Sequence record: DRR723986_1372
Strand: one strand, 5' to 3'
Length of the DNA: 20,000 nt
How positions within the stretch are numbered: the stretch's first letter is position 1; every line of letters begins with the position of its first letter. The notes under the pieces were generated by a model, which worked only from the letters and a program-made list of their open reading frames with translations, was not told where the DNA came from and searched no databases. Below, one piece after another: positions 773-18,956 of this stretch. The position numbers were made by a program, and so were the translations under genes.

Positions 773-1342
773 TCACTGTGTCTTGAAGTCCAAAGCCCAG
801 TTTGGCAGGGGATGAACAAATTGTTGAAAGGTACCACCTTGAATCCGAAGAACTTTTTGATAGGGTTGCTGTGCGCTTGAATTGTCGAGCACCCACACAT
901 CGTCGCACAGGGCCAGGGCCGCCAATACATTGTCAATTGTTCTCGGAATTCGAGATTCAATTTTTTCGTCAGGCACGGCATGCCCTCCTTTTTCAATGCG
1001 TTGAAGTACGCGGGCTTTGTTCAGCCCGTGATGTTCCAGGTGGATAAAGACCATCACGACTTGATAGTCGAGTGCTTTGGCTTTAGCCACAAAGTCAATT
1101 TTGGAGGGATGGGAAAACACGGTTTCAAAGCAAAAATTCTTGCCTTGTTCAAGCAAATTATTGCGCAGGTTTTCGGCAATTTTTGCAGCTTCGTAACTGT
1201 GTTGCTCGGGTGCATGGGGAAATACATCACGGGCAATGTCGTCTGCATTGACAAACGGCATACCCAAAGGCTTTAACTGGGTGCGGTAAAAAGTCGATTT
1301 TCCAGCGCCATTGCCGCCCACCAGCAGCCACAGTTGCTTCAT
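773..1342 (-). CDS. Zeta toxin-like / AAA_33 P-loop kinase, putative type II toxin
   Basis: Walker A GGNGAGKST, VNADDIA, FETVFS and R-x3-R-x3-GGH-x-VP motifs. The start overlaps the upstream stop (ATGA at 1339-1342). Confidence 0.85.
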   Translation of the reverse strand: MKQLWLLVGGNGAGKSTFYRTQLKPLGMPFVNADDIARDVFPHAPEQHSYEAAKIAENLRNNLLEQGKNFCFETVFSHPSKIDFVAKAKALDYQVVMVFIHLEHHGLNKARVLQRIEKGGHAVPDEKIESRIPRTIDNVLAALALCDDVWVLDNSSAQQPYQKVLRIQGGTFQQFVHPLPNWALDFKTQ

Positions 1343-1749
1343 GCCAGCTTGACAGGCTTGAACTGACCATTTTCAAATTGACCGATCTTGATTGTGCCCT
1401 TGGGGCCAATTTGCTCGAGCAGGCCGGGGTGGGTAACACTGGCTTGATAGCGAACCTTGTTGTGGCTCACTTCGTTTATCAACTCACCGGTGGTGCGCTT
1501 CATGTCCAAATTACCAAATACCCAGTCGGCGCTGACTGGTGGCGCATTGACCTGTTCCAGTTTGACGCGCAACAGTCCTGCTTTAATTTGCAGCAACGTC
1601 TCCGGGTCTAGCAAACTCTCCACTTTTTGTCCGATGCTGGCCCAATATTCGATTTGCTCGGCCGCGCTGCGGTGATGGAGCTTGCCTAATACCGCAGCAT
1701 TGCTCATCAAATCAGACTGGATCCGAATGGGTGAAGAGGCTTTGGCCAT
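1339..1749 (-). CDS. ParD-like (ribbon-helix-helix) type II antitoxin
   Basis: N-terminus MAKASSPIRIQSDLM...HRSAAEQIEYWASIG matches the RS-x-x-x-QIE-x-WA-x-IG pattern of ParD-like antitoxins. ATG at 1749 has an AGGA Shine-Dalgarno. The track's start at 1794 falls inside the promoter. Confidence 0.8.
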   Translation of the reverse strand: MAKASSPIRIQSDLMSNAAVLGKLHHRSAAEQIEYWASIGQKVESLLDPETLLQIKAGLLRVKLEQVNAPPVSADWVFGNLDMKRTTGELINEVSHNKVRYQASVTHPGLLEQIGPKGTIKIGQFENGQFKPVKLA

Positions 1750-1782
1750 GATGTACTTCCTGATCAGCGCATTAAATAAGTC

Positions 1783-1813
1783 AAATTGTAGCATTCTGCT
1801 ACAATTTAGACAA
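1783..1813 (-). promoter_or_regulatory. Sigma70 promoter of the TA operon with overlapping palindromic operator
   Basis: On the minus strand: -35 TTGTCT (1813-1808), 17 bp spacer, -10 TACAAT (1790-1785) with a TGn extension. A perfect 11-bp inverted repeat AAATTGTAGCA-TTC-TGCTACAATTT (1783-1807) covers the spacer and -10. Confidence 0.75.
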
Positions 1814-4231: not shown

Positions 4232-4287
4232 TTGGCAAATTAGTTGACGACTTGGTTGGCGAATGAGTTGGCCAATTAGTTGATCAA
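4228..4287. repeat. Five imperfect 12-bp tandem repeats
   Basis: TTAGTTGGCAAA / TTAGTTGACGAC / TTGGTTGGCGAA / TGAGTTGGCCAA / TTAGTTGATCAA. They fill the whole gap between the convergent phoD and kinase stop codons. Confidence 0.8.
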
Positions 4288-5994
4288 CAGCTGTATCAAA
4301 TTCATCACCAGCAAAATTGCCGCCAGCACTTGCCACAGCAACACCGGGTTTTTTTCAATCAGGGGTTGCTTGGCCACACTGGCTTCCAGCATGGTGTTAG
4401 GCACGGTCAGGTCTTGCAAAAATTCACTGAGCGCATCGTAGCGATACCGTGGGTTGGGTTGAAGCGCTTTGCGCAAGCAGGCCTCTACCCACAGCGGCAA
4501 ATCACGGCGCGGGTGGTTGGCTGGAATGTAGCGCAAATCGCTGTAGCTTTTCAGTTCAACCTGCTTCACCGACTTTTCCGCAAAGGGCAGGGAACCAGTC
4601 AGCATTTCATACACCACCACGGCCAGTGAAAACAAATCTGATTTGAATGTTCCCACTTCACCCATCAGGTACTCTGGGGCCACATAATTGACGCTCCCTT
4701 GCGGTACCGATTTGTCCAGTGGTGAAATCAGTTCATCGGCACCTGCGATCAGTACGGTGCCGAAGTCGAGAATTTTCACGCAGCCGTTCGAGTCGATCAT
4801 GATGTTCTCGGGTTTGATGTCCTGGTGCACCATGTCGGCACGCTGAAACGCACGCAGCCCGGCCACCACCTGCTTCACAATGCGTCGCACCGCATCCATG
4901 CCGGGTTTGGGGTTGTCATACATCCATTCCCGCAGGTTGATGCCTTCAATGTATTCACCAAGATAATACAAAAACTGCTTCGGGCGTTTGGGCACATGGG
5001 TGCGCATCACATTCACATGTTGCACGCTTTGTCCCACCCATTCTTCGCGAACAAAACCGCTTAGGTACATCGCGTCTTCCGCGAAATTCAGTGAGGGTGT
5101 TTTCAATGTGAATTGTTCACCGGTTTCCATGTCGCGCACGCGGTACATGTGGCTGCGGGTTCCGCTGAAAATAATTTCAAGTACTTCATAGCCATCTATT
5201 TTGTTGCCCACCTGAAGCACAGGCGGTATGGGCAATTGTGTCAACTTGCGGTGCACCTCATCCAGCGTTTCATGGGGCAGGGCATCGACCGCCATCAGCA
5301 ACACGGTCAGGTTGTCATCGCTGCCTGCATTTAGCGCGGCCTGTACCATGTGCCTGGCGAGTTGCTCCAGGTGGCCTGTGCCGTGCTGTGCAATCAGGGC
5401 CAGCAGCTCAGGGCGCTTCAAAACGCCGTGAACGCCGTCGGTGCTCAGCAATACCAGGTCACCCACCTGCAATTCATGCGTGCTGTAGTCCAGTTCCAGG
5501 TGGCGGTCGGCGCCCAGTGCACGCGACAAATATTCCTGCCCGCGTTCTGTGCGCACGTGGTCTTGGGTCAGGCGTTCAATGGCATCACCGCGCACGTGAT
5601 ATACCCGTGAATCGCCCACATGAAAACAGTGCAGGGTATTGGATTTCAATACCACCACGCTGAAAGTGGTCAAAAGGCTGTCGTTGTGGCTGGCCCGGTT
5701 GGTATTCTGTTGATAAATCCACGCATTCAGACCGGAAATGATTTGTCGGGCTGACTTGTGAACGCTCCACGTGTAGGGAGTGGCGGCATAGTCATCGAGA
5801 AAACTGGTTACCGCCGTTTGGCTGGCCACATGAGAGTCAGCACAACTGCTCACGCCATCGGCAATGGCGGCAGCTGCACCTTTCAGCAAGTTGGATTCGG
5901 CTTGCCCGCACCATGCAGCAAAGGCATCCTGATTCACAGGTTTTTGGCCTGCGATGGAATAACCACCAAACCGAACTTGCAGAGTGCTGCTCAT
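4276..5994 (-). CDS. Bifunctional PP2C phosphatase / Hanks-type Ser/Thr protein kinase with C-terminal TM helix
   Basis: PP2C motifs NQD, IADG, HVGDSR, STDG, DDNLT. Kinase motifs LKT, HQDIKPEN, DFG, APE, SDLFS. Hydrophobic C-terminus. ATG at 5994 (AAGG upstream) is preferred over TTG at 6027. Confidence 0.9.
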   Translation of the reverse strand: MSSTLQVRFGGYSIAGQKPVNQDAFAAWCGQAESNLLKGAAAAIADGVSSCADSHVASQTAVTSFLDDYAATPYTWSVHKSARQIISGLNAWIYQQNTNRASHNDSLLTTFSVVVLKSNTLHCFHVGDSRVYHVRGDAIERLTQDHVRTERGQEYLSRALGADRHLELDYSTHELQVGDLVLLSTDGVHGVLKRPELLALIAQHGTGHLEQLARHMVQAALNAGSDDNLTVLLMAVDALPHETLDEVHRKLTQLPIPPVLQVGNKIDGYEVLEIIFSGTRSHMYRVRDMETGEQFTLKTPSLNFAEDAMYLSGFVREEWVGQSVQHVNVMRTHVPKRPKQFLYYLGEYIEGINLREWMYDNPKPGMDAVRRIVKQVVAGLRAFQRADMVHQDIKPENIMIDSNGCVKILDFGTVLIAGADELISPLDKSVPQGSVNYVAPEYLMGEVGTFKSDLFSLAVVVYEMLTGSLPFAEKSVKQVELKSYSDLRYIPANHPRRDLPLWVEACLRKALQPNPRYRYDALSEFLQDLTVPNTMLEASVAKQPLIEKNPVLLWQVLAAILLVMNLIQLLIN

Positions 5995-6019
5995 GGTGCC
6001 TTTGCTGGTCGTTGTCTGT

Positions 6020-7489
6020 TTATCCAACCCGAATCAATTCAACTGTGCCATCTTCTTTCACTTCGGCCATGTGGCCTTGAGGTTCTTCCATGAACAACAG
6101 TGTAATAAAGCCCACCACGGCTGTTAAAGCAATCACGAAGAAAAATGCCTGATAGCTGACAAACGACAACACTGTGAGGTAAACCACAGCACCTACATTG
6201 CCGTACGCACCTGTCATGCCCGCAATTTGACCAGTCAAGCGGCGCTTGATCAAAGGCACCGCTGCAAATACAGCGCCTTCACCGGCCTGCACAAAAAATG
6301 AACAGGCCATGGTGGTGATCACGGCCAACCACAATGGCCAGCTTGATTCAGTCAAACCCATCAGGGCATAGCCCACAGCCAGCCCAGCAGTCAAAATTAG
6401 CAAAGTACGCTTGCGACCAAATTTGTCGCTGATCCAGCCTCCACCGGGGCGCGACATCAGGTTCATGAAAGCGTACATGGAGGCGACAAGACCTGCGTAC
6501 ACGGGGCTGAGTGAAAAGGTTTCCGAGTAGAACAATGGCAACATCGAAACTACAGCCAATTCAGAACCAAATGTGGCGAAATAAAGTACGTTCAACACAG
6601 CCACTTGTTTGAATTTGTAGCGGTGCAATTCAGGTACAGGGGTTTTGAAAATATCGCTGTTCACCTTGTAGGCGCTGTAGCAGTCGTAAACCAGTATCAA
6701 TACCAAAATGCCGTAGAGGATATTGGCCGCTGAACTGCTCAGCATGCTGACCCCCTCGGGCGACAATTTCCAGATCAACAACGCCAATGCGGCGTACATG
6801 GGCAGTTTCATCAGCAGCATGAAGTAGAAATCGCTGACGCTGGTGACTTCCATGCCACCGCTTTTCTTGGGTTTGAAGTAGGTAGAGCCCTTTGGGGTGT
6901 CGCTGACATTGAAATACCAGACTGCACTGAATACCAGACAGATTGCACCGGTCATCGCAATTGCGTAGCGCCAGCCATCTGGCCCGCCAAATACCAAGGC
7001 AAGAGTGGGAAGCACCATGGCTGCTCCGGCTGAGCCGAAGTTGCCCCAACCACCGTAAATGCCCTCGGCAGTGCCCAATTGGTGAGCTGGAAACCATTCA
7101 CTGACCATGCGAATACCGATGACAAACCCCGCACCGATGAAGCCCAGCAGAAATCTGGAAATGGCGGCCTGTGCGAAGTCGGTTGAAAAAGCGAACATGA
7201 AACAGGGAATCGCAGAAACAAACAGCAAGGCTGCATAAACAATTCTGGGACCAAACTTGTCGGTCAACATGCCGATCAGGATTCGGGCTGGAATGGTCAG
7301 CGCCACATTCAGAATCAGCAGGGTTTTGACCTGTTCCTTGCTGAGGTTCAGCGATTCAGCAATGGCGCCAAGCATGGGTGCATGGTTGAACCAAACAAAG
7401 AAGGTAATAAAAAATGCAATCCAGCTCATATGGAGGATTTTCATTTTTCCTGCAAAAGAAAACAGATTTAGCTTGGCATGGTCGTTCAT
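6020..7489 (-). CDS. NarK/NasA-family nitrate/nitrite MFS transporter
   Basis: Multi-TM MFS protein with nitrate-signature-like segments ([28 protein letters not shown]), TFGSEL and [13 protein letters not shown] at 7489 (MNDHAKL) is likely because the longer start lies inside the leader terminator. Confidence 0.92.
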
Positions 7490-7513
7490 GACGAATGGCT
7501 CTTTTTTGAAATC

Positions 7514-7571
7514 AAAATAAAAAGCGCCCACCGTTTGAAAAAATCAGTAGATTCATTCAAATGGTGAGCGC
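7514..7571 (-). terminator. Intrinsic terminator (attenuator) in the nitrate transporter leader
   Basis: Minus strand GCGCTCACCATTTGAA...TTCAAACGGTGGGCGC forms a 16-position stem with one mismatch and one G-U pair. It is followed by TTTTTATTTT and ends about 25 nt before the start codon. Confidence 0.85.
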
Positions 7572-10122: not shown

Positions 10123-10214
10123 GTAACAAACCCCCATGAGATGAAGCTTGTACTTTGAGTGCAAATGTTTGGATGTAATAATCACGGATGCACAACTTCG
10201 CTGGAGCAATTCCC

Positions 10215-11264
10215 ATGTTCGAGAAACTCTTTGCGGGTACCTTGATGGCCCTTGTGATTTGGCAGCCTGGTGCAGCGAATGCAACGACTGCGGTACCAGT
10301 ACCCTTGCCCCAGTTGCCTGCCACTTTTTCAGGTACTTTGCCTTGCGCCAGTTGTGAGGGAATTGAAACAAGTATTACCTTGCAGTCCGATGGTACTTTC
10401 TTTTCCCGCCAGCGCTACGCGGGGCAAGTTCCTCCCAATCAAGCCAGCGACTTGGGACGTTGGGTGATGTCGCATTACGGCAATATCGTGGTGATGCAGG
10501 GGCAAAACTCAAATCTGCGTTATTTCCGGGTGAATTCAACGGATTCTATTGAAATGCTGGATCTGGAAGCGCGCACCATTTTGTCAAACCTGAATTACCA
10601 TCTGAATCGTACCCAGACGGCTGACTCACTTGACCTGAAGTTGTTTCCGCTTCGCGGACAGTATGTGTACCTCGCGGATGCTGGTCTTTTTTCAGAATGC
10701 GTCTCTGGTTTGAGTTTTCCAGTGTTGGCACAGGGTGACAATATCAAGTTGGAACGCGAATATCTGGAACGTCGAAATGAGCCTGGGCAGGCTCTGCTGG
10801 CCACAGTGTATGGTCACTTGAAGCTTGCACCCTCCATGGAGGGTGGTCGATTGGTACCTAGTTTGCTTCCGCTGCGTTATGAACATATTGCGCTTGGGAA
10901 TTGCGCTACACGTTTGCATTCCGCAAATTTGAAAGACCAGTTCTGGACGCTGGTTCAACTCAATGGCAAGCCAGTGGTATTACCCGAATCTGGGAGAGCA
11001 CCGGGTTTGATGCTTCATTCCGAAAATAGTCGTTTGAGTGGCTCGGGTGGGTGTAACCAGTTGTTGGGTACGTATACTCTCGACGGCCGTTTCGTTCAAT
11101 TGAACCTAGTCGCTGCCACACGCATGGCCTGTTTGAACGAGGGTAATGTTGATGGTGAACTAATCAGCACACTGGCCCAGGTTAGAAGCTGGAATATTCT
11201 GGGCCAGCGTATGGAGCTGTATGACCAGCTTGGACGTTTGCTGGCCAGGTTTGAAGTGTCTTAG
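10215..11264 (+). CDS. Exported NlpE(CutF)-N + NlpE-C + META (HslJ-like) domain protein
   Basis: FSGTLPCASCEGI...L-x-x-DGTF (NlpE N-domain CxxC), RGQYVYLADAGLFSEC (NlpE C-domain) and W-x-L...SGSGGCN...ATRMAC (META). ATG at 10215 has a GGAG RBS. Confidence 0.85.
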   Translation: MFEKLFAGTLMALVIWQPGAANATTAVPVPLPQLPATFSGTLPCASCEGIETSITLQSDGTFFSRQRYAGQVPPNQASDLGRWVMSHYGNIVVMQGQNSNLRYFRVNSTDSIEMLDLEARTILSNLNYHLNRTQTADSLDLKLFPLRGQYVYLADAGLFSECVSGLSFPVLAQGDNIKLEREYLERRNEPGQALLATVYGHLKLAPSMEGGRLVPSLLPLRYEHIALGNCATRLHSANLKDQFWTLVQLNGKPVVLPESGRAPGLMLHSENSRLSGSGGCNQLLGTYTLDGRFVQLNLVAATRMACLNEGNVDGELISTLAQVRSWNILGQRMELYDQLGRLLARFEVS

Positions 11265-11268
11265 TGGT

Positions 11269-12492
11269 TCAATCTTGCAACAGTTCGAAGGTGAGCCCAG
11301 CGTGTTGCTGCAAGCGGCTCATCAATTGCTCTCCCATCAACGAGGCAGGGGTCCAGAATCCGCCTGCGTGCTTTTGAATGTCCAGCGCCAGGCACACCGC
11401 TGCCTCACCCAGCATTTTTCCGGTTGAACCATAACCAGGGTCCATGTCACCTGTGACTTTGGCGGTCAGGGTATTGCCTTTGCTGGTGGTGCCATAAAAG
11501 CGCAGGTCATAAGAGCCTCGCTGCTGCGAAGTCTCGCTCGGTCCTTCACCAGGTTTGGGAACCACGAATTTTTCGAGTGCCCAACGGGTTGGTGGAAGTG
11601 CAGCACCAATCAAGAAACCAGCCATGCCGCTGGCCAGTCCCATCGCAGTGATTCGGCCTTTGAGCCCGTTGCCTGTCATCATGGCTTCGTCGTATTTGAA
11701 TTCTTTACCGTATCCGTAATTTTGCAGAGCGTTGCTGCGATGAACCACACGGGTGTTGATACCTGCCATGACAAAGGGAGCCAGCCAGCTCTTGGCCACT
11801 GGATCAAATTCTGCGAAGCTGACATTGGGTTGACGTGCAGCCAGGCGGGCAGGTGAAATCAAATATGGGTTAGCCAACTTTTTGGCCAGTGACCGGTCTG
11901 CAGCCACTTCGCGCGTTACGTTGATCATGCTGGCCACGGTACCGCCTGAAAATTCTCCTTTCAGTTTTCTAACCCGCATCCGGATTTGTTGGCAAGGTTC
12001 GCCATATTGAACACTGGCGGCCTTTTGTAGAAACAGCACTCCCAGATCAGAGGGAATGGAATCGAAACCGCAGCAATGCACGATACGAGCACCACTTTGC
12101 TTTGCAGTCTCTTCATGGGCTTCAATCATTCGCGCAATCCATTGCACTTCACCGGTGAGATCACAGTAATCTGTGCCGGTTTCAGCGCAAACTTTGACAA
12201 GGCCAGATCCGTACAAGGCATACGGCCCAACTGTTGAAACCACCACCTTGGTTTTTGAACACAGGTTTTGCAGGTCGGTTTCTTGGCTGGCATTGGCCAA
12301 AATCGTTGGCAATTCTCGAGCCTGTTCACCCAGTCTGTTTTTCAGCACCGCGAGCTTGTCAGCATCCCGTCCGGCAATGGCCCAGTTGATTTCGCCGTTC
12401 ATGCCATGTCGCCTCCACAAATACTGCACCAGGATCTGACCTACAAAACTGGTCGCACCAAAGACGATCAAGTCAAACTCTTTCTTTTTCAT
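11269..12492 (-). CDS. Saccharopine dehydrogenase-like oxidoreductase (trans-acting enoyl reductase family)
   Basis: Rossmann motif GATSFVG, plus AGR, TVGPY, YCDLTGE, CGFDSIPSDLG, SGGT and DPGYGST. Confidence 0.9.
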   Translation of the reverse strand: MKKKEFDLIVFGATSFVGQILVQYLWRRHGMNGEINWAIAGRDADKLAVLKNRLGEQARELPTILANASQETDLQNLCSKTKVVVSTVGPYALYGSGLVKVCAETGTDYCDLTGEVQWIARMIEAHEETAKQSGARIVHCCGFDSIPSDLGVLFLQKAASVQYGEPCQQIRMRVRKLKGEFSGGTVASMINVTREVAADRSLAKKLANPYLISPARLAARQPNVSFAEFDPVAKSWLAPFVMAGINTRVVHRSNALQNYGYGKEFKYDEAMMTGNGLKGRITAMGLASGMAGFLIGAALPPTRWALEKFVVPKPGEGPSETSQQRGSYDLRFYGTTSKGNTLTAKVTGDMDPGYGSTGKMLGEAAVCLALDIQKHAGGFWTPASLMGEQLMSRLQQHAGLTFELLQD

Positions 12493-12684
12493 TCTGCTTT
12501 ATCTCCTGAATTTATTGTGTTTTACCAGATTCTCTCACACTCAATAAACCTTGTATTGATATTCGGAATACCGATTATTTCTAGGCCCTCAGGGTGATAG
12601 GGGGTGACCGGAGCTTTAACCCGAACGGGGGGACGCAAATTGGATGTGGAATATTTAATGTGAATCCATTCTCCGGAGAATCCC

Positions 12685-13398
12685 ATGTCCAGTGTTTCAG
12701 AAGTCAACTTTCTGTTCGATTCCACCTCGCAGTTGTTACCGTTCTGGATCGCGATTGCGAAAACCGAGCATGAGCTGGAGTTGGCTGCCAAAGCCCGGCA
12801 ACTTGCCTACGGAAGGCATCTTCCGTCGCTCGGTGAAATGCTGGCCAAACCCGATGCTGATGATGCTCATCCTGACTCCGCGGTACTGCTGGCGTTCTCA
12901 AAGCTGGATGGAAGTTGTATTGGTACGGTGCGGGTACAGATTGCCAATCAGCGGCAGCTTCGTCTCGAGGAGTCGTATGTATTGCCCAAGGCCCTGAGTA
13001 CCGGTCGAGTTGCCGAGGTGTCAAGGCTGGCCATCCCTGCTCGGTCCAATGGTTTGACGTTGAGGTTGATGCTGATCAAGGCAGCGTATTGGTACATCAG
13101 GGCCAAGCTGGTGGACCGCTGTTTTCTGTGTGTGCGTTATCCGGTGGACAGGCAATACCGACGATTCGAACTTGATGATGTGCTACAGCCCAATGAGTTT
13201 GTAGAGATGAAACACATCGGCATGATTCCCCATCGAGTTCTCTGGTTTGATGTATTTCACATTGAAGCACGTTGGTTGCTCAGTGCAAATCCGCTCCATT
13301 CAGTTTATTTCGCAAGTTCGCATCCTGATTTGCTGCAAAACATTCAGATGCGTACCTTGCAACTGGAAACCCAACAACAAGTGCGGTCCATTGGATGA
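12685..13398 (+). CDS. N-acyl amino acid synthase (FeeM-like) / LuxI-fold GNAT acyltransferase
   Basis: R-x-x-AY, DADD, GTVRV and AEVSRL are core motifs shared by the FeeM/LuxI superfamily. It lacks the LuxI F-x-x-x-LGW segment. GGAG RBS upstream. Confidence 0.7.
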   Translation: MSSVSEVNFLFDSTSQLLPFWIAIAKTEHELELAAKARQLAYGRHLPSLGEMLAKPDADDAHPDSAVLLAFSKLDGSCIGTVRVQIANQRQLRLEESYVLPKALSTGRVAEVSRLAIPARSNGLTLRLMLIKAAYWYIRAKLVDRCFLCVRYPVDRQYRRFELDDVLQPNEFVEMKHIGMIPHRVLWFDVFHIEARWLLSANPLHSVYFASSHPDLLQNIQMRTLQLETQQQVRSIG

Positions 13399-16295
13399 TT
13401 GTCATGCCTGTAGCTGTCGCCGACTCTTTTCAGAGAATATCCTGGGTGCCATTCCTCTCGGTGGTTTTGTTGAGTTTTTTTCTGATTGTGTCTTTTGTGA
13501 ATTTATCGGTTCTGGAGGAGAACAGCCCCGACGAGGTGCCGCTGGCATTCTCAAGTCTCTCGGACAATGAGGTACACGGCAGCTTGTTCAGTGTGATTGA
13601 ACAACTCAAAAATCAACCCGAGCTGCCTGTATTGCGCACTCATCTGAACGAGACACCTTTTTGGGTTTACTCAAGTGTGTCGCAAACCATGGCACAACAG
13701 CACGAGAAAATCTTCTTCAGGTCGCGGCATCTTGTGCAGTCTTCGTGTTGGTTGGCCATGCAAAGCGGCAGCTTGCAGGAAATTCAACTGGAGGCCAATC
13801 AGGGGCGGGCGGTATCAGCGCATCTTGTAAATAGCACTGGCTTGCAAGGTGTGCTTTGTCAGTTCAAGTTCATTGGGCCAGCAAGTCTCGAAATTGGTTT
13901 ACAGACTGCCGGAAACTTCAATGCAGCGACTGTCATTTCTGAACGTCGGCAAAGTTTTCTGGAGGGTGTGCTTTATCTGATGATTGGCATGGTAGCAGTC
14001 GCTGCATTCATGACCCGCAGCGCCCTGTTTGTCATTTATGGATTCTGGCTGTTTGCCAGTCTTCGATTGGTGGCTTTGTCCGAAGGTTGGGACCATTCAA
14101 TCTTTGGTTTTGACCTTGAATCTGAGCCGCTCATGCGGGCTCGAATGTTGGCCTTGGCCATGTACTTTACTTCGACAGTGCTCATTGTGTGGCATCTGTT
14201 TGAGAACATTCGACGCGATTCTTGGTTGGGAGTTCTGAGAGCCTTGCAATGCGCCAGTGCTCTTTTGATGGTGTTGGCGCTTTTTTCCCCTTACCGGACT
14301 TTTCTCGAACTGTTCTGGCCCATCAGTTTGGTGGCGGCCTCGGCTGTAGCGTGGGTCGTGATTCAAAATTTTCTCGAAAAACGTGACCGAGTAGCGATTT
14401 ATTATCTCGCTGCCATGCTGATATCACTCACTGGTGCTGTGGCAGAAGTATTGTCGGCCTGGTTTGATCAACGCTTCTTGTTACAGTATTTCAACAGTGC
14501 TTCAGTCACGGTACTGGCCAGTGTGATGACTGCTGTGGCTTTGGCTGAGTTTTTAAGGAAAACACAACGGCAGCAACAGTTGGCAGCGCAGGCAGTCAAG
14601 CAGGCCCACGAGCGCCTTGAGAGTGTTTTCGATATTGCACCCTCGGCGATGTTCACTTGCACGCGTCACGGTCAACTGATTCACTTCAACAAACAGTTTA
14701 CCGACCTTTTTCTGAACCGTGACGGAAGGCCTACACTCGACTTTCTGCAGCCGCAGCGACTTGCTGCCCTGTTTAACTTGCTAGAACATCCAGGGAAATC
14801 ATCCAGGCGGGAAATGCCTGTGTTGGGTAGCGAAGGAGAAACTCGTTGGTATGAATTGGTGGTGAGTCGCGATCACCAGGAACTTGTGGGGGTCGTGTGC
14901 GATTTCACAGCCAGAAAAGACCGCGAACTGGCTTTGCAGTACCAGGCCACACACGATGAATTGACTGGTGCATTAAACCGCCGGGGTTTGCAAAACACGA
15001 TCCACAACAAGCTGAGCAGACGCACCGCCAGTTTCACTTTCTTTTGTGTCGATATTCAGCAGTTTTCACGTTTGATCAGCGCCTATGGTCTTGCAGTTTC
15101 GGATCAGTTGTTGCAGGCGTTTTATACAGAGTTATATCGGCACATGAATGCCCACGGCGATATAGCACGGCTGCATGTTGATCAGTTCTCAATCATGATT
15201 CACCAGAGCGACCTTGAGCAAGCGGAACAGGCCTTCAATGCATTTTTACATCGGCTTGATTCGGTGCCTTTTCAACTGGATGGCCGCAGCATTCAAACGG
15301 CCGTGCTCGCCACGGTGGTATTTCAGGGTCTGGTGGACAATGTGCTCGATGTGATGGAGACCGTTGAGATGTCCATGCGGGAGTCGAAGCTGAAAGCGAA
15401 ACGCAACAGCAAGGTGGAGAGGATTGTTTTTGAGCAGAATCAGACCCGTAGGTTGCTGGACCAATCCAGAACCATACGCCGACTGGATGATCAACAATTG
15501 CCCGCTGGCTTGACTTTGGCGTGGCAACCCATACTGGCCATCAACGAGTCCAATGGTTCTCTCTACGCTGAGGCCTTGTTAAGGATCAAGGATGACAATG
15601 GGAAGCTTGCATCGGCAGGATTCTTGATTGAGGCCTGCGAGCGAGGAGGGTACACGGCATTTTTGGACAATTGGGTGTTAAGCCGATCACTTGATTTTCT
15701 CGCTCAACATGCAAAGCAATTGAACAAGTTGAGCGTCCTGAGCATTAATGTATCGCCGGGTTCCTTGAATGATGAAACATTTCTTCAGGATACATTGGCG
15801 TTGATTCAGGCGCATCAACAGCATGCGTCCAAACTGTGTCTGGAGATTACCGAGGTAGGTTCGGTGATCAATCTACAGGCCGTGCAGAGCTTCATTGAGC
15901 AAGTCAGAGGTATGGGCGTGCGTATCGCGCTGGATGACTTTGGTGCGGGGTACAGCAATTTCAGGTACGCGATGGACCTGCATGCAGACGTGATCAAGAT
16001 TGACGGGTCTATCGTGAAGAATATTTGCCACAGCACCGAAAGCCATGCTGTGATTACCGCCATTGTGGGCTTGGCCCATGACCTGGGTTGCAAGTGTGTA
16101 GCCGAGTGGGTAGAGGATCTACACACCTTGCGAGAAGTGAAAGAACTTGGTGTGGATTATGTACAGGGTTACCTGGTATCGCCTGCAGTGGAGTGTTCAC
16201 GTTTTCTGAATTTGACCGACCCGCTTGATTTGATTGATGACAAAAAGCGGGCCACATTAATTCAAGACGTGGTATTGGCCATTGAAGACTGCTGA
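13395..16295 (+). CDS. 7TM-DISM-type membrane sensor with PAS-like, degenerate GGDEF and intact EAL domains; probable c-di-GMP phosphodiesterase
   Basis: N-terminal TM, about 150-aa extracytoplasmic domain, about 7 TM helices, coiled linker and PAS-like region. HDELTG precedes a GGDEF domain whose signature reads HVDQF. EAL motifs AEALLR, SINVS, LEITE, DDFGAGYS, IKIDG, VAEWVE and QGY are all present. Confidence 0.9.
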   Translation: MIVMPVAVADSFQRISWVPFLSVVLLSFFLIVSFVNLSVLEENSPDEVPLAFSSLSDNEVHGSLFSVIEQLKNQPELPVLRTHLNETPFWVYSSVSQTMAQQHEKIFFRSRHLVQSSCWLAMQSGSLQEIQLEANQGRAVSAHLVNSTGLQGVLCQFKFIGPASLEIGLQTAGNFNAATVISERRQSFLEGVLYLMIGMVAVAAFMTRSALFVIYGFWLFASLRLVALSEGWDHSIFGFDLESEPLMRARMLALAMYFTSTVLIVWHLFENIRRDSWLGVLRALQCASALLMVLALFSPYRTFLELFWPISLVAASAVAWVVIQNFLEKRDRVAIYYLAAMLISLTGAVAEVLSAWFDQRFLLQYFNSASVTVLASVMTAVALAEFLRKTQRQQQLAAQAVKQAHERLESVFDIAPSAMFTCTRHGQLIHFNKQFTDLFLNRDGRPTLDFLQPQRLAALFNLLEHPGKSSRREMPVLGSEGETRWYELVVSRDHQELVGVVCDFTARKDRELALQYQATHDELTGALNRRGLQNTIHNKLSRRTASFTFFCVDIQQFSRLISAYGLAVSDQLLQAFYTELYRHMNAHGDIARLHVDQFSIMIHQSDLEQAEQAFNAFLHRLDSVPFQLDGRSIQTAVLATVVFQGLVDNVLDVMETVEMSMRESKLKAKRNSKVERIVFEQNQTRRLLDQSRTIRRLDDQQLPAGLTLAWQPILAINESNGSLYAEALLRIKDDNGKLASAGFLIEACERGGYTAFLDNWVLSRSLDFLAQHAKQLNKLSVLSINVSPGSLNDETFLQDTLALIQAHQQHASKLCLEITEVGSVINLQAVQSFIEQVRGMGVRIALDDFGAGYSNFRYAMDLHADVIKIDGSIVKNICHSTESHAVITAIVGLAHDLGCKCVAEWVEDLHTLREVKELGVDYVQGYLVSPAVECSRFLNLTDPLDLIDDKKRATLIQDVVLAIEDC

Positions 16296-17191
16296 GTATT
16301 CTGCTGACTCTGTGCAGGCATGTGAGGTGCCATTTCCGAGTATTCAACCCAGAATCGTTTCACGATAGATTTTTCAAGCTGCCCGCGTTTGTTCAATGGA
16401 CAGGCAAAGCGCAAGGTCATGCGCAAACATTTTTCGTCTACGCTTGCCCAGAAGACTTCAGGCCTTGCCTTGGGCAAGTCCACGAAATTGTCGCGTTCTA
16501 CAGCAGAGAAATGGCGCTCGGCCTCATCGATCCAGTGTTTGCCTGCCTCGTTGGCCAGTTTCAGCGCAAGCGATTCAGCGGCCTGAATTTTCACCGATTT
16601 GTCGAAGTTAAAGTCAATCAGGTGTATGCCATATGAGCCGTACACCGACAAGTTTTTCATGGCCTGCGTGAATACCAAACTGTTGGGTAGAGAAAGCAGA
16701 CGACCAGTCTGTTTTTTCGACGGTCCAATTTCAGCCAGTTCGAATGTGACAAAACCGGTGTTGACCAGCTGCCCGGTGAATTGGCCCACTTCAATGGTGC
16801 TACCGATCCGCAGGCTTTTGTTCAATGAAATCACCAAAGCACCCCAGAGGCAGAGAATGAACTCTTTGCTGACAATCAACAATGCGCCACCGATTGCAGC
16901 CAAAGAAATCAGAAAACCTGTGATTTGTCCCGACCATAAAGCCAGCACCAACAATAGCGCTGTGACCCAAACAATGTTTTTACGCCGAACCCATGTAGCC
17001 CGTACATTGCCGGTTTGGGGTGGTGTGGTTTTTGTCTCTCGTAGGAGTCGCCAGTGCATCAAGCGGTTGATGGTGGTAGCCAACATCAAAATGGCGATGG
17101 ACAATATCAGCTTGCCCAGACGGCCTTCAAGAAAACTGAAAACCTGTTCCACCGACGGTTCGAGGTCTCTGAAAAATTGAATAATTTCCAT
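16262..17191 (-). CDS. Small-conductance mechanosensitive channel (MscS family)
   Basis: Three TM segments, then IGSTIEVG-x-x-x-G-x-L and LPNS motifs. ATG at 17191 (MEIIQFF) is separated from the kef stop by 1 nt. Confidence 0.85.
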   Translation of the reverse strand: MEIIQFFRDLEPSVEQVFSFLEGRLGKLILSIAILMLATTINRLMHWRLLRETKTTPPQTGNVRATWVRRKNIVWVTALLLVLALWSGQITGFLISLAAIGGALLIVSKEFILCLWGALVISLNKSLRIGSTIEVGQFTGQLVNTGFVTFELAEIGPSKKQTGRLLSLPNSLVFTQAMKNLSVYGSYGIHLIDFNFDKSVKIQAAESLALKLANEAGKHWIDEAERHFSAVERDNFVDLPKARPEVFWASVDEKCLRMTLRFACPLNKRGQLEKSIVKRFWVEYSEMAPHMPAQSQQNTQQSSMANTTS

Positions 17192-17192
17192 G

Positions 17193-18956
17193 TTAGCTTC
17201 TAGTTGCTGCCCGTTGATCTTGCTGGAAGATGGCTTCGAGTTCCTCGCGTCCCTGTCGACCAATCTCAATGACTTTCTCGCTGTCGCCCAGTACCTTGGC
17301 CTGCTTGTTGAGCAGGCTTTCATCGTGTTGTTTGAATGTTTCGGCTTTTTGCATCGCTTGGCCGTCGCTGTAACCCAGGGCATGAAGTGCCTCGGTGGCT
17401 GCTTCCAGTGCGCCTGCGAATAATTCACGAACCACCGAATGTGCACCCGCCGCTTTCAAGGCAAGATAGTCATTGCGGTTGTGGGCGCGGGCGATGATGG
17501 TGATTTTCGGGTAGTGATGAACAATAAACTCGACGATCGCTTGAGTCATTTTTGGGTCGTCGATCGCAACAATGGCGGTACGTACCTTGGAAATCCCTGC
17601 CGCTTCCAGTACTTCAGCCCGAGACGCGTCACCGTAATAGACTTGATTGCCGAATTTTTTTACGAACTCAATGTGTTCGGCGTTTTTGTCCAGTGCGGTG
17701 AAGTGAATTTGGTTGGCTGCCAGAATGCGACCAGTCACCTGGCCAAAACGTCCGAAACCGAGAATCAATGCTTCCGATTCGCTGCTGTCAAACTTCTCGA
17801 TGTTTTCCGGGGCTTTGGCGATCTGTTTGTCGGTGAATTTCTCAAACCACAACACTGCGGGTACAGTCAGTGCCATTGAGATGCCAATCATCAAATTGAC
17901 CATACCTGCTGTACCTTCGCCCAGCAAGCGCAAGTCCATGGCTTGGGCCATAATCACGAAACCGAATTCACCACCCTGGCACAGCATCAAGCCCAGCATC
18001 AGGCCACGAGGGAAGGGAACGCCTGCCAGCATAACCAGCCCAATGATGACTCCTGCTTTCAATGCCATCAGTCCCAGGGTGCCAAACATCACAGTCAGGG
18101 GCGATTCAATCAGCAAGCCGAAATTCAAGGTCATGCCAATCGAGATAAAAAACAGACCCAGGCTTAAGCCCTTGAAGGGCTCTACGTCGGCCTCGAGTTG
18201 ATGACGAAAGGAAGAGTTGGCCAGCATCATGCCAGCCATAAAGGCACCCAGACCCATGGACAGGTTGGCATGTTCCATGACCACCGCAGCGCCCAAGACA
18301 ATCAACAAGGCCACCACCGTCATGATTTCACGTCCGCCGTAGCGGGACAAAAATTGCAGCGCCGGGTTGATGAGATAGCGAGCGAATACAATCAAACCAA
18401 GGATGGCTGCAGGTGCAAGCCACCATTGACCAGGATCGGTATCGGGCTCTATGGGCGCCAGGGCTTGTACAGCAAACAGGATGGGCACCACTGCCAGGTC
18501 CTGAAACAGCAGCATTGAAAAACCACGCCGGCCATCCTCATTGCCCAAGATGCCTTTGTCAGCCATCAACTGAATGGCGAATGCGGTGGAGGAGAGGCCC
18601 AGTGCCAGAGCGATCACCAGCGCAGCATTGCCATTCATTTCGAACAGAAAAGCCAACACACCGTAGATCATGCCTGCTGTAATCAGCAATTGACCCGAGC
18701 CTAACAGCAGCACCTGGGCACGCATGGCCCAAAGCTTGGCGGGTTCCAGTTCCAGCCCAATGACAAACAGCAGCAAGATGACGCCAATTTCAGAGAAGTG
18801 CAGCGCCTTTTCCGGGTCATCGATCAGCCCTAGCACTTGGGGGCCAATGACCACGCCGGCAGCCAGATAACCCAAAATTGCGCCCAAACCCAATTTCTTG
18901 AACAGGGGCACCGCCAGGGCGGCAGCCAGCAAAAAGTAAACAACACTTTCCATCAT
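17193..18956 (-). CDS. Glutathione-regulated K+ efflux protein, KefB/KefC family (CPA2 + KTN/TrkA-N)
   Basis: LGYL-x-AG-x-x-IGP, LLFQDL, regulatory loop RHQLEADVEPFKG (compare KefC HALESDIEPFKG), QGGEFGFV, and KTN motifs GFGRFGQ and YGDA. Confidence 0.92.
   Translation of the reverse strand: MMESVVYFLLAAALAVPLFKKLGLGAILGYLAAGVVIGPQVLGLIDDPEKALHFSEIGVILLLFVIGLELEPAKLWAMRAQVLLLGSGQLLITAGMIYGVLAFLFEMNGNAALVIALALGLSSTAFAIQLMADKGILGNEDGRRGFSMLLFQDLAVVPILFAVQALAPIEPDTDPGQWWLAPAAILGLIVFARYLINPALQFLSRYGGREIMTVVALLIVLGAAVVMEHANLSMGLGAFMAGMMLANSSFRHQLEADVEPFKGLSLGLFFISIGMTLNFGLLIESPLTVMFGTLGLMALKAGVIIGLVMLAGVPFPRGLMLGLMLCQGGEFGFVIMAQAMDLRLLGEGTAGMVNLMIGISMALTVPAVLWFEKFTDKQIAKAPENIEKFDSSESEALILGFGRFGQVTGRILAANQIHFTALDKNAEHIEFVKKFGNQVYYGDASRAEVLEAAGISKVRTAIVAIDDPKMTQAIVEFIVHHYPKITIIARAHNRNDYLALKAAGAHSVVRELFAGALEAATEALHALGYSDGQAMQKAETFKQHDESLLNKQAKVLGDSEKVIEIGRQGREELEAIFQQDQRAATRS

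Follow-up and report, generated by a model that had tools for sequence, protein, structure and literature searches.

One of the closest described counterparts of the gene pair reported here is the RpfF/RpfR system of Burkholderia and Cronobacter, in which a lipid-signal synthase, the source of the Burkholderia diffusible signal factor (BDSF), is encoded with a PAS-GGDEF-EAL receptor that acts on the turnover of cyclic di-GMP (c-di-GMP) without a LuxR protein (PMC6361424, accessible part). Our subject is a two-gene locus in a 20,000-nucleotide stretch of sequence record DRR723986_1372 (the whole stretch is called the window below), which likewise combines, in betaproteobacterial hosts, many of them from water and soil, and without LuxR, the gene of a candidate lipid-signal synthase, a FeeM-type N-acyltransferase, with that of a 7TMR-DISM membrane receptor carrying PAS, GGDEF and EAL domains. 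As in RpfF/RpfR-type systems the synthase gene adjoins the gene of a GGDEF-EAL receptor and the pair is conserved. That synthase and receptor form one conserved functional, signalling module is well supported, because the pair is co-inherited, co-duplicated and co-lost. The components, however, are different. The accessible part of PMC6361424 gives the RpfF product as a cis-2 fatty acid, not an acyl amide, and has RpfR binding its signal in the PAS domain, whereas the receptor described here has a periplasmic domain and a seven-transmembrane (7TM) bundle, and a PAS domain that is dispensable in two of its relatives. The synthase of the window, unlike RpfF, has the GNAT/FeeM fold. RpfF itself belongs to the crotonase family and not to GNAT.

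Among N-acyl amino acid synthases (NAS), FeeM is the best fold match and the Pfam FeeM model is passed by the window's synthase, which differs from FeeM in lacking a detectable sequence match to the FeeM chain through its family profile and in a C-terminal extension with the invariant residues H213 and D215, and from the FeeM-type enzymes in the literature searched in having a fixed receptor partner. The sole published link between a NAS and c-di-GMP found in that literature is the NAS-PilZ fusion of Nas343 and Nas354, obtained from environmental DNA whose source community was dominated by Flavobacteriaceae; there, so far as the accessible part of PMC4897644 describes it, the enzyme itself carries the domain that binds c-di-GMP, and c-di-GMP would act on the enzyme, whereas here a separate membrane receptor would make or degrade c-di-GMP. 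The same text calls the role that N-acyl amino acid synthases and their products play in physiology 'still not clear' (PMC4897644).

With LuxI/LuxR the locus has in common the acyltransferase fold of the synthase and the position of the synthase gene beside a receptor gene; it differs from LuxI/LuxR in that the synthase has no Autoind_synth (PF00765) match at E <= 1 in the Pfam scan, that the receptor is not of LuxR type and that it ends in a second messenger where LuxI/LuxR ends in transcription. PEP-CTERM/exosortase-associated N-acyl amino acid synthases (TIGR03694) were reportedly described by Craig et al. in 2011; like these, the present enzyme is a FeeM-like protein of Gram-negative bacteria whose gene is linked to a system concerned with biofilm or exopolysaccharide, and unlike these it scores 11.7 bits against the NCBIfam model TIGR03694, far under the cut-off of 111.95, and has a conserved neighbourhood without exosortase genes. 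On the receptor side RgsP of Sinorhizobium meliloti is alike in architecture, orthology aside, having DISMED2, 7TM and PAS domains, a degenerate GGDEF (GGDQF) and an EAL domain that is an active phosphodiesterase in RgsP; it differs in being essential, in its location at growth zones and in its partner, the peptidoglycan peptidase RgsM, and the accessible part of that report describes neither a synthase partner nor a known ligand (PMC6107284). Few 7TMR-DISM receptors have been studied functionally, according to the same text. In the literature searched, with most subscription journals outside the search, we found no description of a FeeM or other N-acyl amino acid synthase paired with a 7TMR-DISM receptor or with GGDEF(-EAL) domains, and no N-acyl amino acids linked to the genera concerned. 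What is new is a pairing of a candidate lipid-signal synthase with a c-di-GMP receptor built from different families than the known pairs.

Conservation and co-inheritance of the pair

The two genes and the domains of the receptor lie as follows in the window (AF2, AlphaFold2).

12685..13398, plus strand: FeeM-type N-acyltransferase, candidate N-acyl amide synthase, 237 residues, cytoplasmic (Pfam, AF2 model, fold search)
13395..16295, plus strand: 7TMR-DISM receptor with PAS, degenerate GGDEF and EAL domains, 966 residues (Pfam, AF2 model)
13443..13508, plus strand: N-terminal membrane anchor helix, residues 17-38 (AF2 model of residues 1-400)
13536..13904, plus strand: periplasmic beta-sandwich, DISMED2/RetS-like, residues 48-170 (AF2 model, fold match to 3jyb)
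13908..14591, plus strand: seven-helix bundle, 7TMR-DISM_7TM, residues 172-399 (Pfam, AF2 model)
14610..14870, plus strand: PAS domain, weak match, residues 406-492 (PAS_8 and PAS_9 at E about 1e-3, below cut-offs)
14946..15398, plus strand: GGDEF domain with degenerate active site (HVDQF; DIQQFSRLISAYG where DLDRFKLINDLFG is expected) (Pfam, receptor alignment)
15507..16184, plus strand: EAL phosphodiesterase domain, all checked motif residues present (Pfam, receptor alignment)

Public genomes yielded 283 relatives of the synthase, the best 80 of which were kept as 78 loci, and it is these 78 that the context counts cover. They derive from Limnobacter, Massilia, Herbaspirillum, Noviherbaspirillum, Pigmentiphaga, Verticiella, Rhodoferax, Sulfuritalea, Sterolibacterium, Uliginosibacterium and many metagenome-assembled genomes (MAGs). 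A full-length receptor homologue lies immediately downstream of the synthase in 71 of the 78 loci, the receptors being 27-33% identical where the synthases are 36-42% identical; the remaining seven comprise two with a receptor lacking PAS (L033, L037), one with a broken receptor (L053), one cut by a contig end (L060) and three with too little downstream DNA (L032, L048, L084). Conservation of the pair across Betaproteobacteria had been set beforehand as a test that could refute the original prediction. The receptor was found downstream of the synthase in all 75 informative loci, drawn from the best 80 of 283 relatives, with no locus among them in which the synthase stands alone or with another partner. 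Clustering of the flanking open reading frames (ORFs) left synthase and receptor as the sole conserved genes, any other cluster occurring in at most 14 loci, and in this clustering no gene for an acyl carrier protein (ACP), a transporter, LuxR, a second acyltransferase, lipid handling or an exosortase is conserved with the pair.

Sampling by genome gives the same picture. The synthase is present in 18 of 25 Limnobacter genomes, with the receptor directly 3' of it in 17 of these loci and the 18th stopping at a contig end; the sensor part of the receptor has a strong match in the same 17 genomes and no strong match in the seven that lack the synthase (two weak matches at 20-24% identity, none in the other five). 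An even sample of 401 genomes from the order has the synthase in 18, from 10 of 167 genera, and a strong sensor match was found in all 18 and in two more, G313 (a hit on a 2141-nucleotide contig) and G346. Synthase and receptor are adjacent in 16 of these 18 genomes, and in G273 they lie at two contig ends. G346 holds a true orphan, a full-length receptor of 980 residues (L097, 1631-4573, minus strand) with a lysA-like decarboxylase gene upstream. In an even draw of 400 genomes over the class, one of which was not scored, the synthase profile matched G001 alone, the nearest genome used for comparison, which has 83% of the window's sampled words in common with it. The names borne by homologues assign the window to Limnobacter. 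The recurrence of the synthase-receptor pairing is far beyond chance.

Several individual loci are unusual. In G421 an ORF on the opposite strand, encoding a 244-residue PEMT/ICMT-like membrane methyltransferase (L099, 3666-4400, plus strand; Pfam PEMT E 3e-9), lies between synthase and receptor; speculatively, a carboxyl methyltransferase at this place could convert an N-acyl amino acid to its methyl ester. In Massilia sp. H-1 (L053, 6857-10306) the receptor is in at least four reading-frame pieces after an intact synthase ORF, owing to either a pseudogene or assembly errors. One paired locus (L059) is labelled Rhodospirillales and one synthase homologue (P0119) Pseudomonas sp., all others being betaproteobacterial; these labels could reflect transfer or mis-binning.

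The two genes also share their phylogeny. Quick maximum-likelihood trees, one of 75 synthases and one of 73 receptors, both give the Limnobacter clade a support of 100. Both also recover two sets of paralogues, SulfA with 4 rows and SulfB with 10, each as a single clade with support 100, and smaller splits within Rhodoferax and Noviherbaspirillum recur in the two trees. One Rhodocyclaceae MAG carries pair B and pair A in tandem (L074, 2007-9754), and a Rhodocyclaceae/Sulfuritalea MAG has tandem pairs as in L074, the second cut by the contig end (L044, 1540-8136). Pairs A and B are 51% identical in the synthase, 33% in the periplasmic domain, 45% in the 7TM bundle, 36% in PAS, 46% in GGDEF and 55% in EAL. 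The tandem arrangement and the matching paralogous pairs indicate that the pair duplicates or moves as a unit, and together with the co-occurrence genome by genome they bear out the conservation of the pair on which the original prediction could have failed. Pairwise synthase distances correlate best with those of the 7TM bundle (r 0.965; partial r 0.66-0.79 when any one of the other regions is controlled for, against partial r 0.29-0.40 for the other receptor regions given 7TM), a weak hint at most, as the pairs are non-independent and p-distances saturate. In Pigmentiphaga litoralis two tandem synthase genes stand upstream of one receptor gene (L065, 6001-7513; L082, 5177-6690), and the two copies fall in separate clades of the synthase tree.

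A probable joint loss of synthase and sensor is seen in four Limnobacter genomes without the synthase, in which the two flanking genes are still neighbours. In three of them (G002, G024 and G025; loci L103, L104 and L105) the slot holds a stand-alone EAL protein in the receptor's orientation (324 residues in G002, 299 in G024), 51-53% identical to receptor residues 694-947. In the fourth (G007; L102) it holds a 592-residue protein that is 50% identical to receptor residues 373-938, begins in the last membrane helix and has a degenerate LHIDQF motif; this PAS-GGDEF-EAL protein is preceded, at the position of the synthase and sensor, by a hybrid histidine kinase, which suggests that the input module has been swapped. 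A careful tree of the EAL domain (77 rows) unites the 14 full-length Limnobacter receptors and the four truncated forms in one clade (100/100), with the G007 form nested among the full-length receptors (99/90) and the three EAL-only forms as one clade (100/97). As the outgroup receptors are all full-length and paired, the simplest reading is that synthase and DISMED2-7TM sensor disappeared jointly, with retention of the EAL output, in at least two events.

Structure of the synthase and the receptor

The synthase matches the Pfam FeeM family (PF21926) at 38.8 bits, cut-off 27, and 15 of 18 relatives match it too (E <= 0.01). A sequence search of the PDB with A1, a profile made from 18 diverse relatives, gave chance matches only and no FeeM or LuxI chain at E <= 10. 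The AF2 model (predicted local distance difference test, pLDDT, 89.2; predicted TM-score, pTM, 0.87) nonetheless has FeeM 2g0b as its top Foldseek match (E 3.3e-9), and VIA-align superposes it on 2g0b_C with Z 18.5 and a root-mean-square deviation (rmsd) of 2.5 Å over 172 of 184 residues, at 13% identity in the structural alignment. Generic GNATs come next at Z 14.9, and N-acyl homoserine lactone (AHL) synthases are in the list at Z 13.1-14.1 (LasI 14.1, RpaI 13.9, TofI 13.5, BjaI 13.2). The FeeM/LuxI-fold acyltransferase proposed from the sequence at the outset is therefore borne out by profile and structure alike, with FeeM closest and AHL synthases lower. Since the model contains no membrane segment, the synthase is taken to be cytoplasmic.

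Residues invariant in A1 include R38, Y42, H45, D60, R83, E95, E111, R114, K132, R151, D155, Y158, H183, H213 and D215, and the spacing of R38, Y42, D60, R83, E111 and R114 resembles what we take to be the conserved residue set of LuxI-family enzymes. E111, present in 18 of 18 synthases, is at the position expected for FeeM Glu95, judged from the end offsets of the alignment only (model 17-202 against chain 2-185) and not residue by residue. Mutation of the equivalent of FeeM Glu95 in Nas354, Glu103, abolished activity (PMC4897644, accessible part).

The 7TM-DISM assignment of the receptor, also part of the original prediction, is sustained by a 7TMR-DISM_7TM match above the cut-off, a RetS-like periplasmic domain and the EAL domain. 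The 7TMR-DISM_7TM model matches residues 187-384 at 35.9 bits (cut-off 29; 38.4 bits with residues 1-400 alone) and is matched by 22 of 22 receptor relatives. In the AF2 model of residues 1-400 (pLDDT 84.8) an extracytoplasmic DISMED-type domain sits between the N-terminal anchor and the 7TM bundle, an assignment shared by the fold match to the RetS periplasmic domain 3jyb (Z 11.7, rmsd 2.8 Å over 126 of 138 residues; in Foldseek the TM-score, taken on the target, is 0.65-0.67). The window's receptor falls under the Pfam DISMED2 cut-off, which one of the 22 relatives exceeds, as does the receptor of L099 (22.7 bits, cut-off 22). Class C G protein-coupled receptor (GPCR)-like bundles match the receptor bundle at Z 13-14, within the range of common helical arrangements. 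Human Wntless, which has the same order of anchor helix, beta-sandwich and 7TM bundle, is matched by Foldseek at E 2.9e-7, and because the query TM-score is low (0.37) and the rmsd 13.7 Å this likeness is an architectural analogy only.

An alignment of 22 sensor sequences, whose identity to the window's is 22-29% outside Limnobacter, has E86, P88, W90, S110, R111, H112, C118, W119, C155, G161 and P162 invariant in the periplasmic domain and W218, L219, G231 and D233 in the bundle, where R224 and W232 are nearly so. The pair C118/C155 would fit a periplasmic disulfide, and the invariant polar and aromatic set with this cysteine pair fits, as far as an alignment can tell, one conserved class of ligand. 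PAS is missing from the paired receptors of L033 and L037 and so cannot be the universal sensor of the family; pairing does without it, which suggests that the conserved sensor is the periplasmic or the 7TM part. As the sensing site the 7TM bundle has no weaker a claim than the periplasmic domain.

On the output side, Pfam assigns residues 518-668 to GGDEF (60.7 bits) and 705-930 to EAL (199.1 bits, E 9.5e-59). The EAL residues E726, R730, N785, E817, E820, D847, D848, K868, E904, E907 and Q924, which we take to mark active enzymes, are unchanged throughout an alignment of 73 receptors (72 rows from K868 on, one row being cut). What stays constant in the receptor is accordingly the RetS-like periplasmic domain, the 7TM bundle and an EAL domain from which none of the checked motif residues is missing. 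The GGDEF signature varies by clade: a degenerate form (HVDQF or the like) occurs in 14 of 14 Limnobacter-clade receptors, and 57 of 59 receptors from other genera have an intact one, so that the output there would be c-di-GMP turnover and not degradation alone. The proposal that the receptor responds by degrading c-di-GMP thus fits Limnobacter alone, and the ancestral output, judged by these motifs, was probably two-way turnover.

Gene junction, transcripts and neighbouring genes

The surroundings of the pair comprise the following features.

13395..13398, plus strand: ATGA stop/start overlap of the synthase and receptor genes (sequence; bridged by RNA-library contigs of X6 and X13)
12493..12684, no strand: divergent intergenic region 5' of the synthase, presumed promoter region (between the minus-strand gene end at 12492 and the synthase ATG)
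11269..12492, minus strand: flanking saccharopine-dehydrogenase-like gene (ORF scan)
16262..17446, minus strand: flanking MscS-like gene (ORF scan)

With both neighbours on the minus strand, the self-contained bicistron with its ATGA overlap is confirmed as first described, and so is the absence of LuxR from the window: no LuxR-type domain was detected in the 14 other large ORFs scanned, and Autoind_bind matched none of three near-complete Limnobacter genomes, the E. coli control being positive. The receptor may instead begin at a second in-frame ATG, at 13404. The overlap of -4 is given by the first possible receptor start in eight Limnobacter-type loci (L019-L025 and the window), and the gap between the genes is 10-270 nucleotides outside the near-Limnobacter loci, to which translational coupling of synthase and receptor is restricted. 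A promoter scan found no sigma-70 consensus site in the region, and terminator-like sites number three where 5.5 are expected by chance. A terminator-like hairpin with a T-run at 14251-14280 (plus strand), inside the coding region of the receptor's membrane domain, is taken as chance.

Two cDNA runs from seawater, X6 and X13, both belonging to one study, cover the locus, with contigs bridging the synthase-receptor junction in both (12671-13747 in X6, 12300-13798 in X13); such RNA contigs cannot show transcript start, strand, level or a single transcript, and DNA carry-over is possible. In X6 positions 12490-12670 are uncovered and the contig starts at 12671, a weak hint as to the promoter.

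Elsewhere in the window, a Zeta-toxin/AAA_33-like ORF (189 residues) lies directly downstream of a ParD-like antitoxin ORF (151 residues) with a four-base overlap (773-1794, minus strand), probably a type II toxin-antitoxin pair. A 583-residue ORF (4276-6027, minus strand) joins an N-terminal PP2C phosphatase to a C-terminal Ser/Thr protein kinase domain and overlaps the upstream MFS transporter ORF (6020-7531) by eight bases, and a 358-residue ORF (10188-11264, plus strand) consists of NlpE N-terminal, NlpE C-terminal and META domains.

Proposed acyl-amide signalling and its alternatives

The conserved domains suggest a route by which the pair could act. The synthase would condense acyl-ACP with an amino acid or amine to yield an amphiphilic N-acyl amide, which would exit the cytoplasm or partition into the membrane; the receptor would detect it by an extracytoplasmic or intramembrane sensor and alter c-di-GMP turnover, through phosphodiesterase activity only in Limnobacter and through a balance of cyclase and phosphodiesterase in other genera. 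The outcome would be an autocrine or quorum-like circuit without LuxR. That this acyl amide serves as ligand to the receptor's sensor, periplasmic or 7TM, is inferred, and we give it even chances of being right. An RpfR-like cytoplasmic PAS sensor is disfavoured as the common mechanism by the paired receptors that lack PAS. More specifically, and as a tentative proposal that we would not yet back, the GPCR-like 7TM receptor may be a LuxR-independent autoinducer sensor that perceives a self-made N-acyl amide at or within the membrane and passes it directly into c-di-GMP turnover, in which case diverged pairs, such as those in tandem in L074, would be separate channels and receptors without a synthase, as in G346, eavesdroppers.

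A number of points weigh against acyl-amide signalling of this kind. Genes of one operon share their history, so that matching trees and co-occurrence show a functional link and not its kind; likewise the synthase gene adjoins the 5' part of the receptor gene, and a single deletion could remove both without any selective reason. The orphan of G346 is a full-length receptor in a genome with no synthase at E <= 1e-10. The catalytic glutamate, E111, is assigned through alignment offsets only, and all steps from acyl-amide formation onward are ones that we infer. In the accessible parts of the published work, the c-di-GMP link of Nas343/Nas354 runs the opposite way, via the PilZ domain fused to the enzyme (PMC4897644), and DISMED domains are predicted to bind carbohydrate, not lipid (PMC6107284).

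Other accounts of the module have to be set beside this one. The synthase and receptor might be co-expressed outputs, the receptor sensing an unrelated external cue while a surfactant or antibiotic acyl amide, not itself the ligand, is made as c-di-GMP falls during dispersal or swarming. Operon-level coupling alone accounts for the conservation and the matching trees, and N-acyltyrosines made by NAS are biosurfactants and antibiotics (PMC4897644, accessible part). We nevertheless consider this account unlikely, as the synthase subfamily is never alone or with another partner in the 75 informative loci, the association is near-obligate from the receptor's side too (18 of 20 strong sensor matches), one genome retains diverged paralogous pairs side by side, in tandem, and the sensor is lost along with the synthase while the EAL output stays. 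This last observation is also left unexplained by reverse or feedback control, in which the receptor would govern the synthase via local c-di-GMP or contact and the acyl amide would be an output rather than an input. [quoted passage not shown]

The remaining alternatives concern the substrate of the enzyme. It might make a membrane aminolipid or envelope acyl amide whose level the 7TM receptor monitors, a cell-autonomous homeostasis of membrane composition that would suit both the closer tracking of synthase distances by the 7TM bundle and a weak Acetyltransf_5 match (E 0.06; also in two of 18 relatives), that family presumably including the aminolipid N-acyltransferases. The locus has no conserved second acyltransferase or lipid-handling gene, however, and the patchy distribution of the synthase (18 of 401 genomes) is more what one would expect of an accessory signalling module than of a core lipid pathway, making homeostasis very unlikely. 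That the enzyme acylates the receptor or another protein instead of a small amine is hardly credible: many protein N-acyltransferases belong to the GNAT superfamily, and the fold list contains several of them at Z 12-15, but FeeM scores 3.6 Z units higher than any protein acetyltransferase listed and the Pfam match, found in 15 of 18 relatives, is specific to FeeM.

Whichever account holds, this near-obligate two-gene module is a candidate ligand-receptor pair with a measurable output in c-di-GMP level, biofilm or motility, and it is present in genera that are harmless and can be cultured, such as Limnobacter, Massilia and Pigmentiphaga. Its EAL-only descendants, PAS-less receptors, tandem pairs and intact or degenerate cyclase motifs provide natural material for comparison, and the module bears on two questions, what N-acyl amino acid synthases and their products do in the cell and what 7TMR-DISM receptors sense. 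If acyl-amide signalling through the receptor is true, it would constitute a second lipid-signal route into c-di-GMP, beside that of the diffusible signal factor (DSF) and RpfR, and a new chemical class of bacterial autoinducer.

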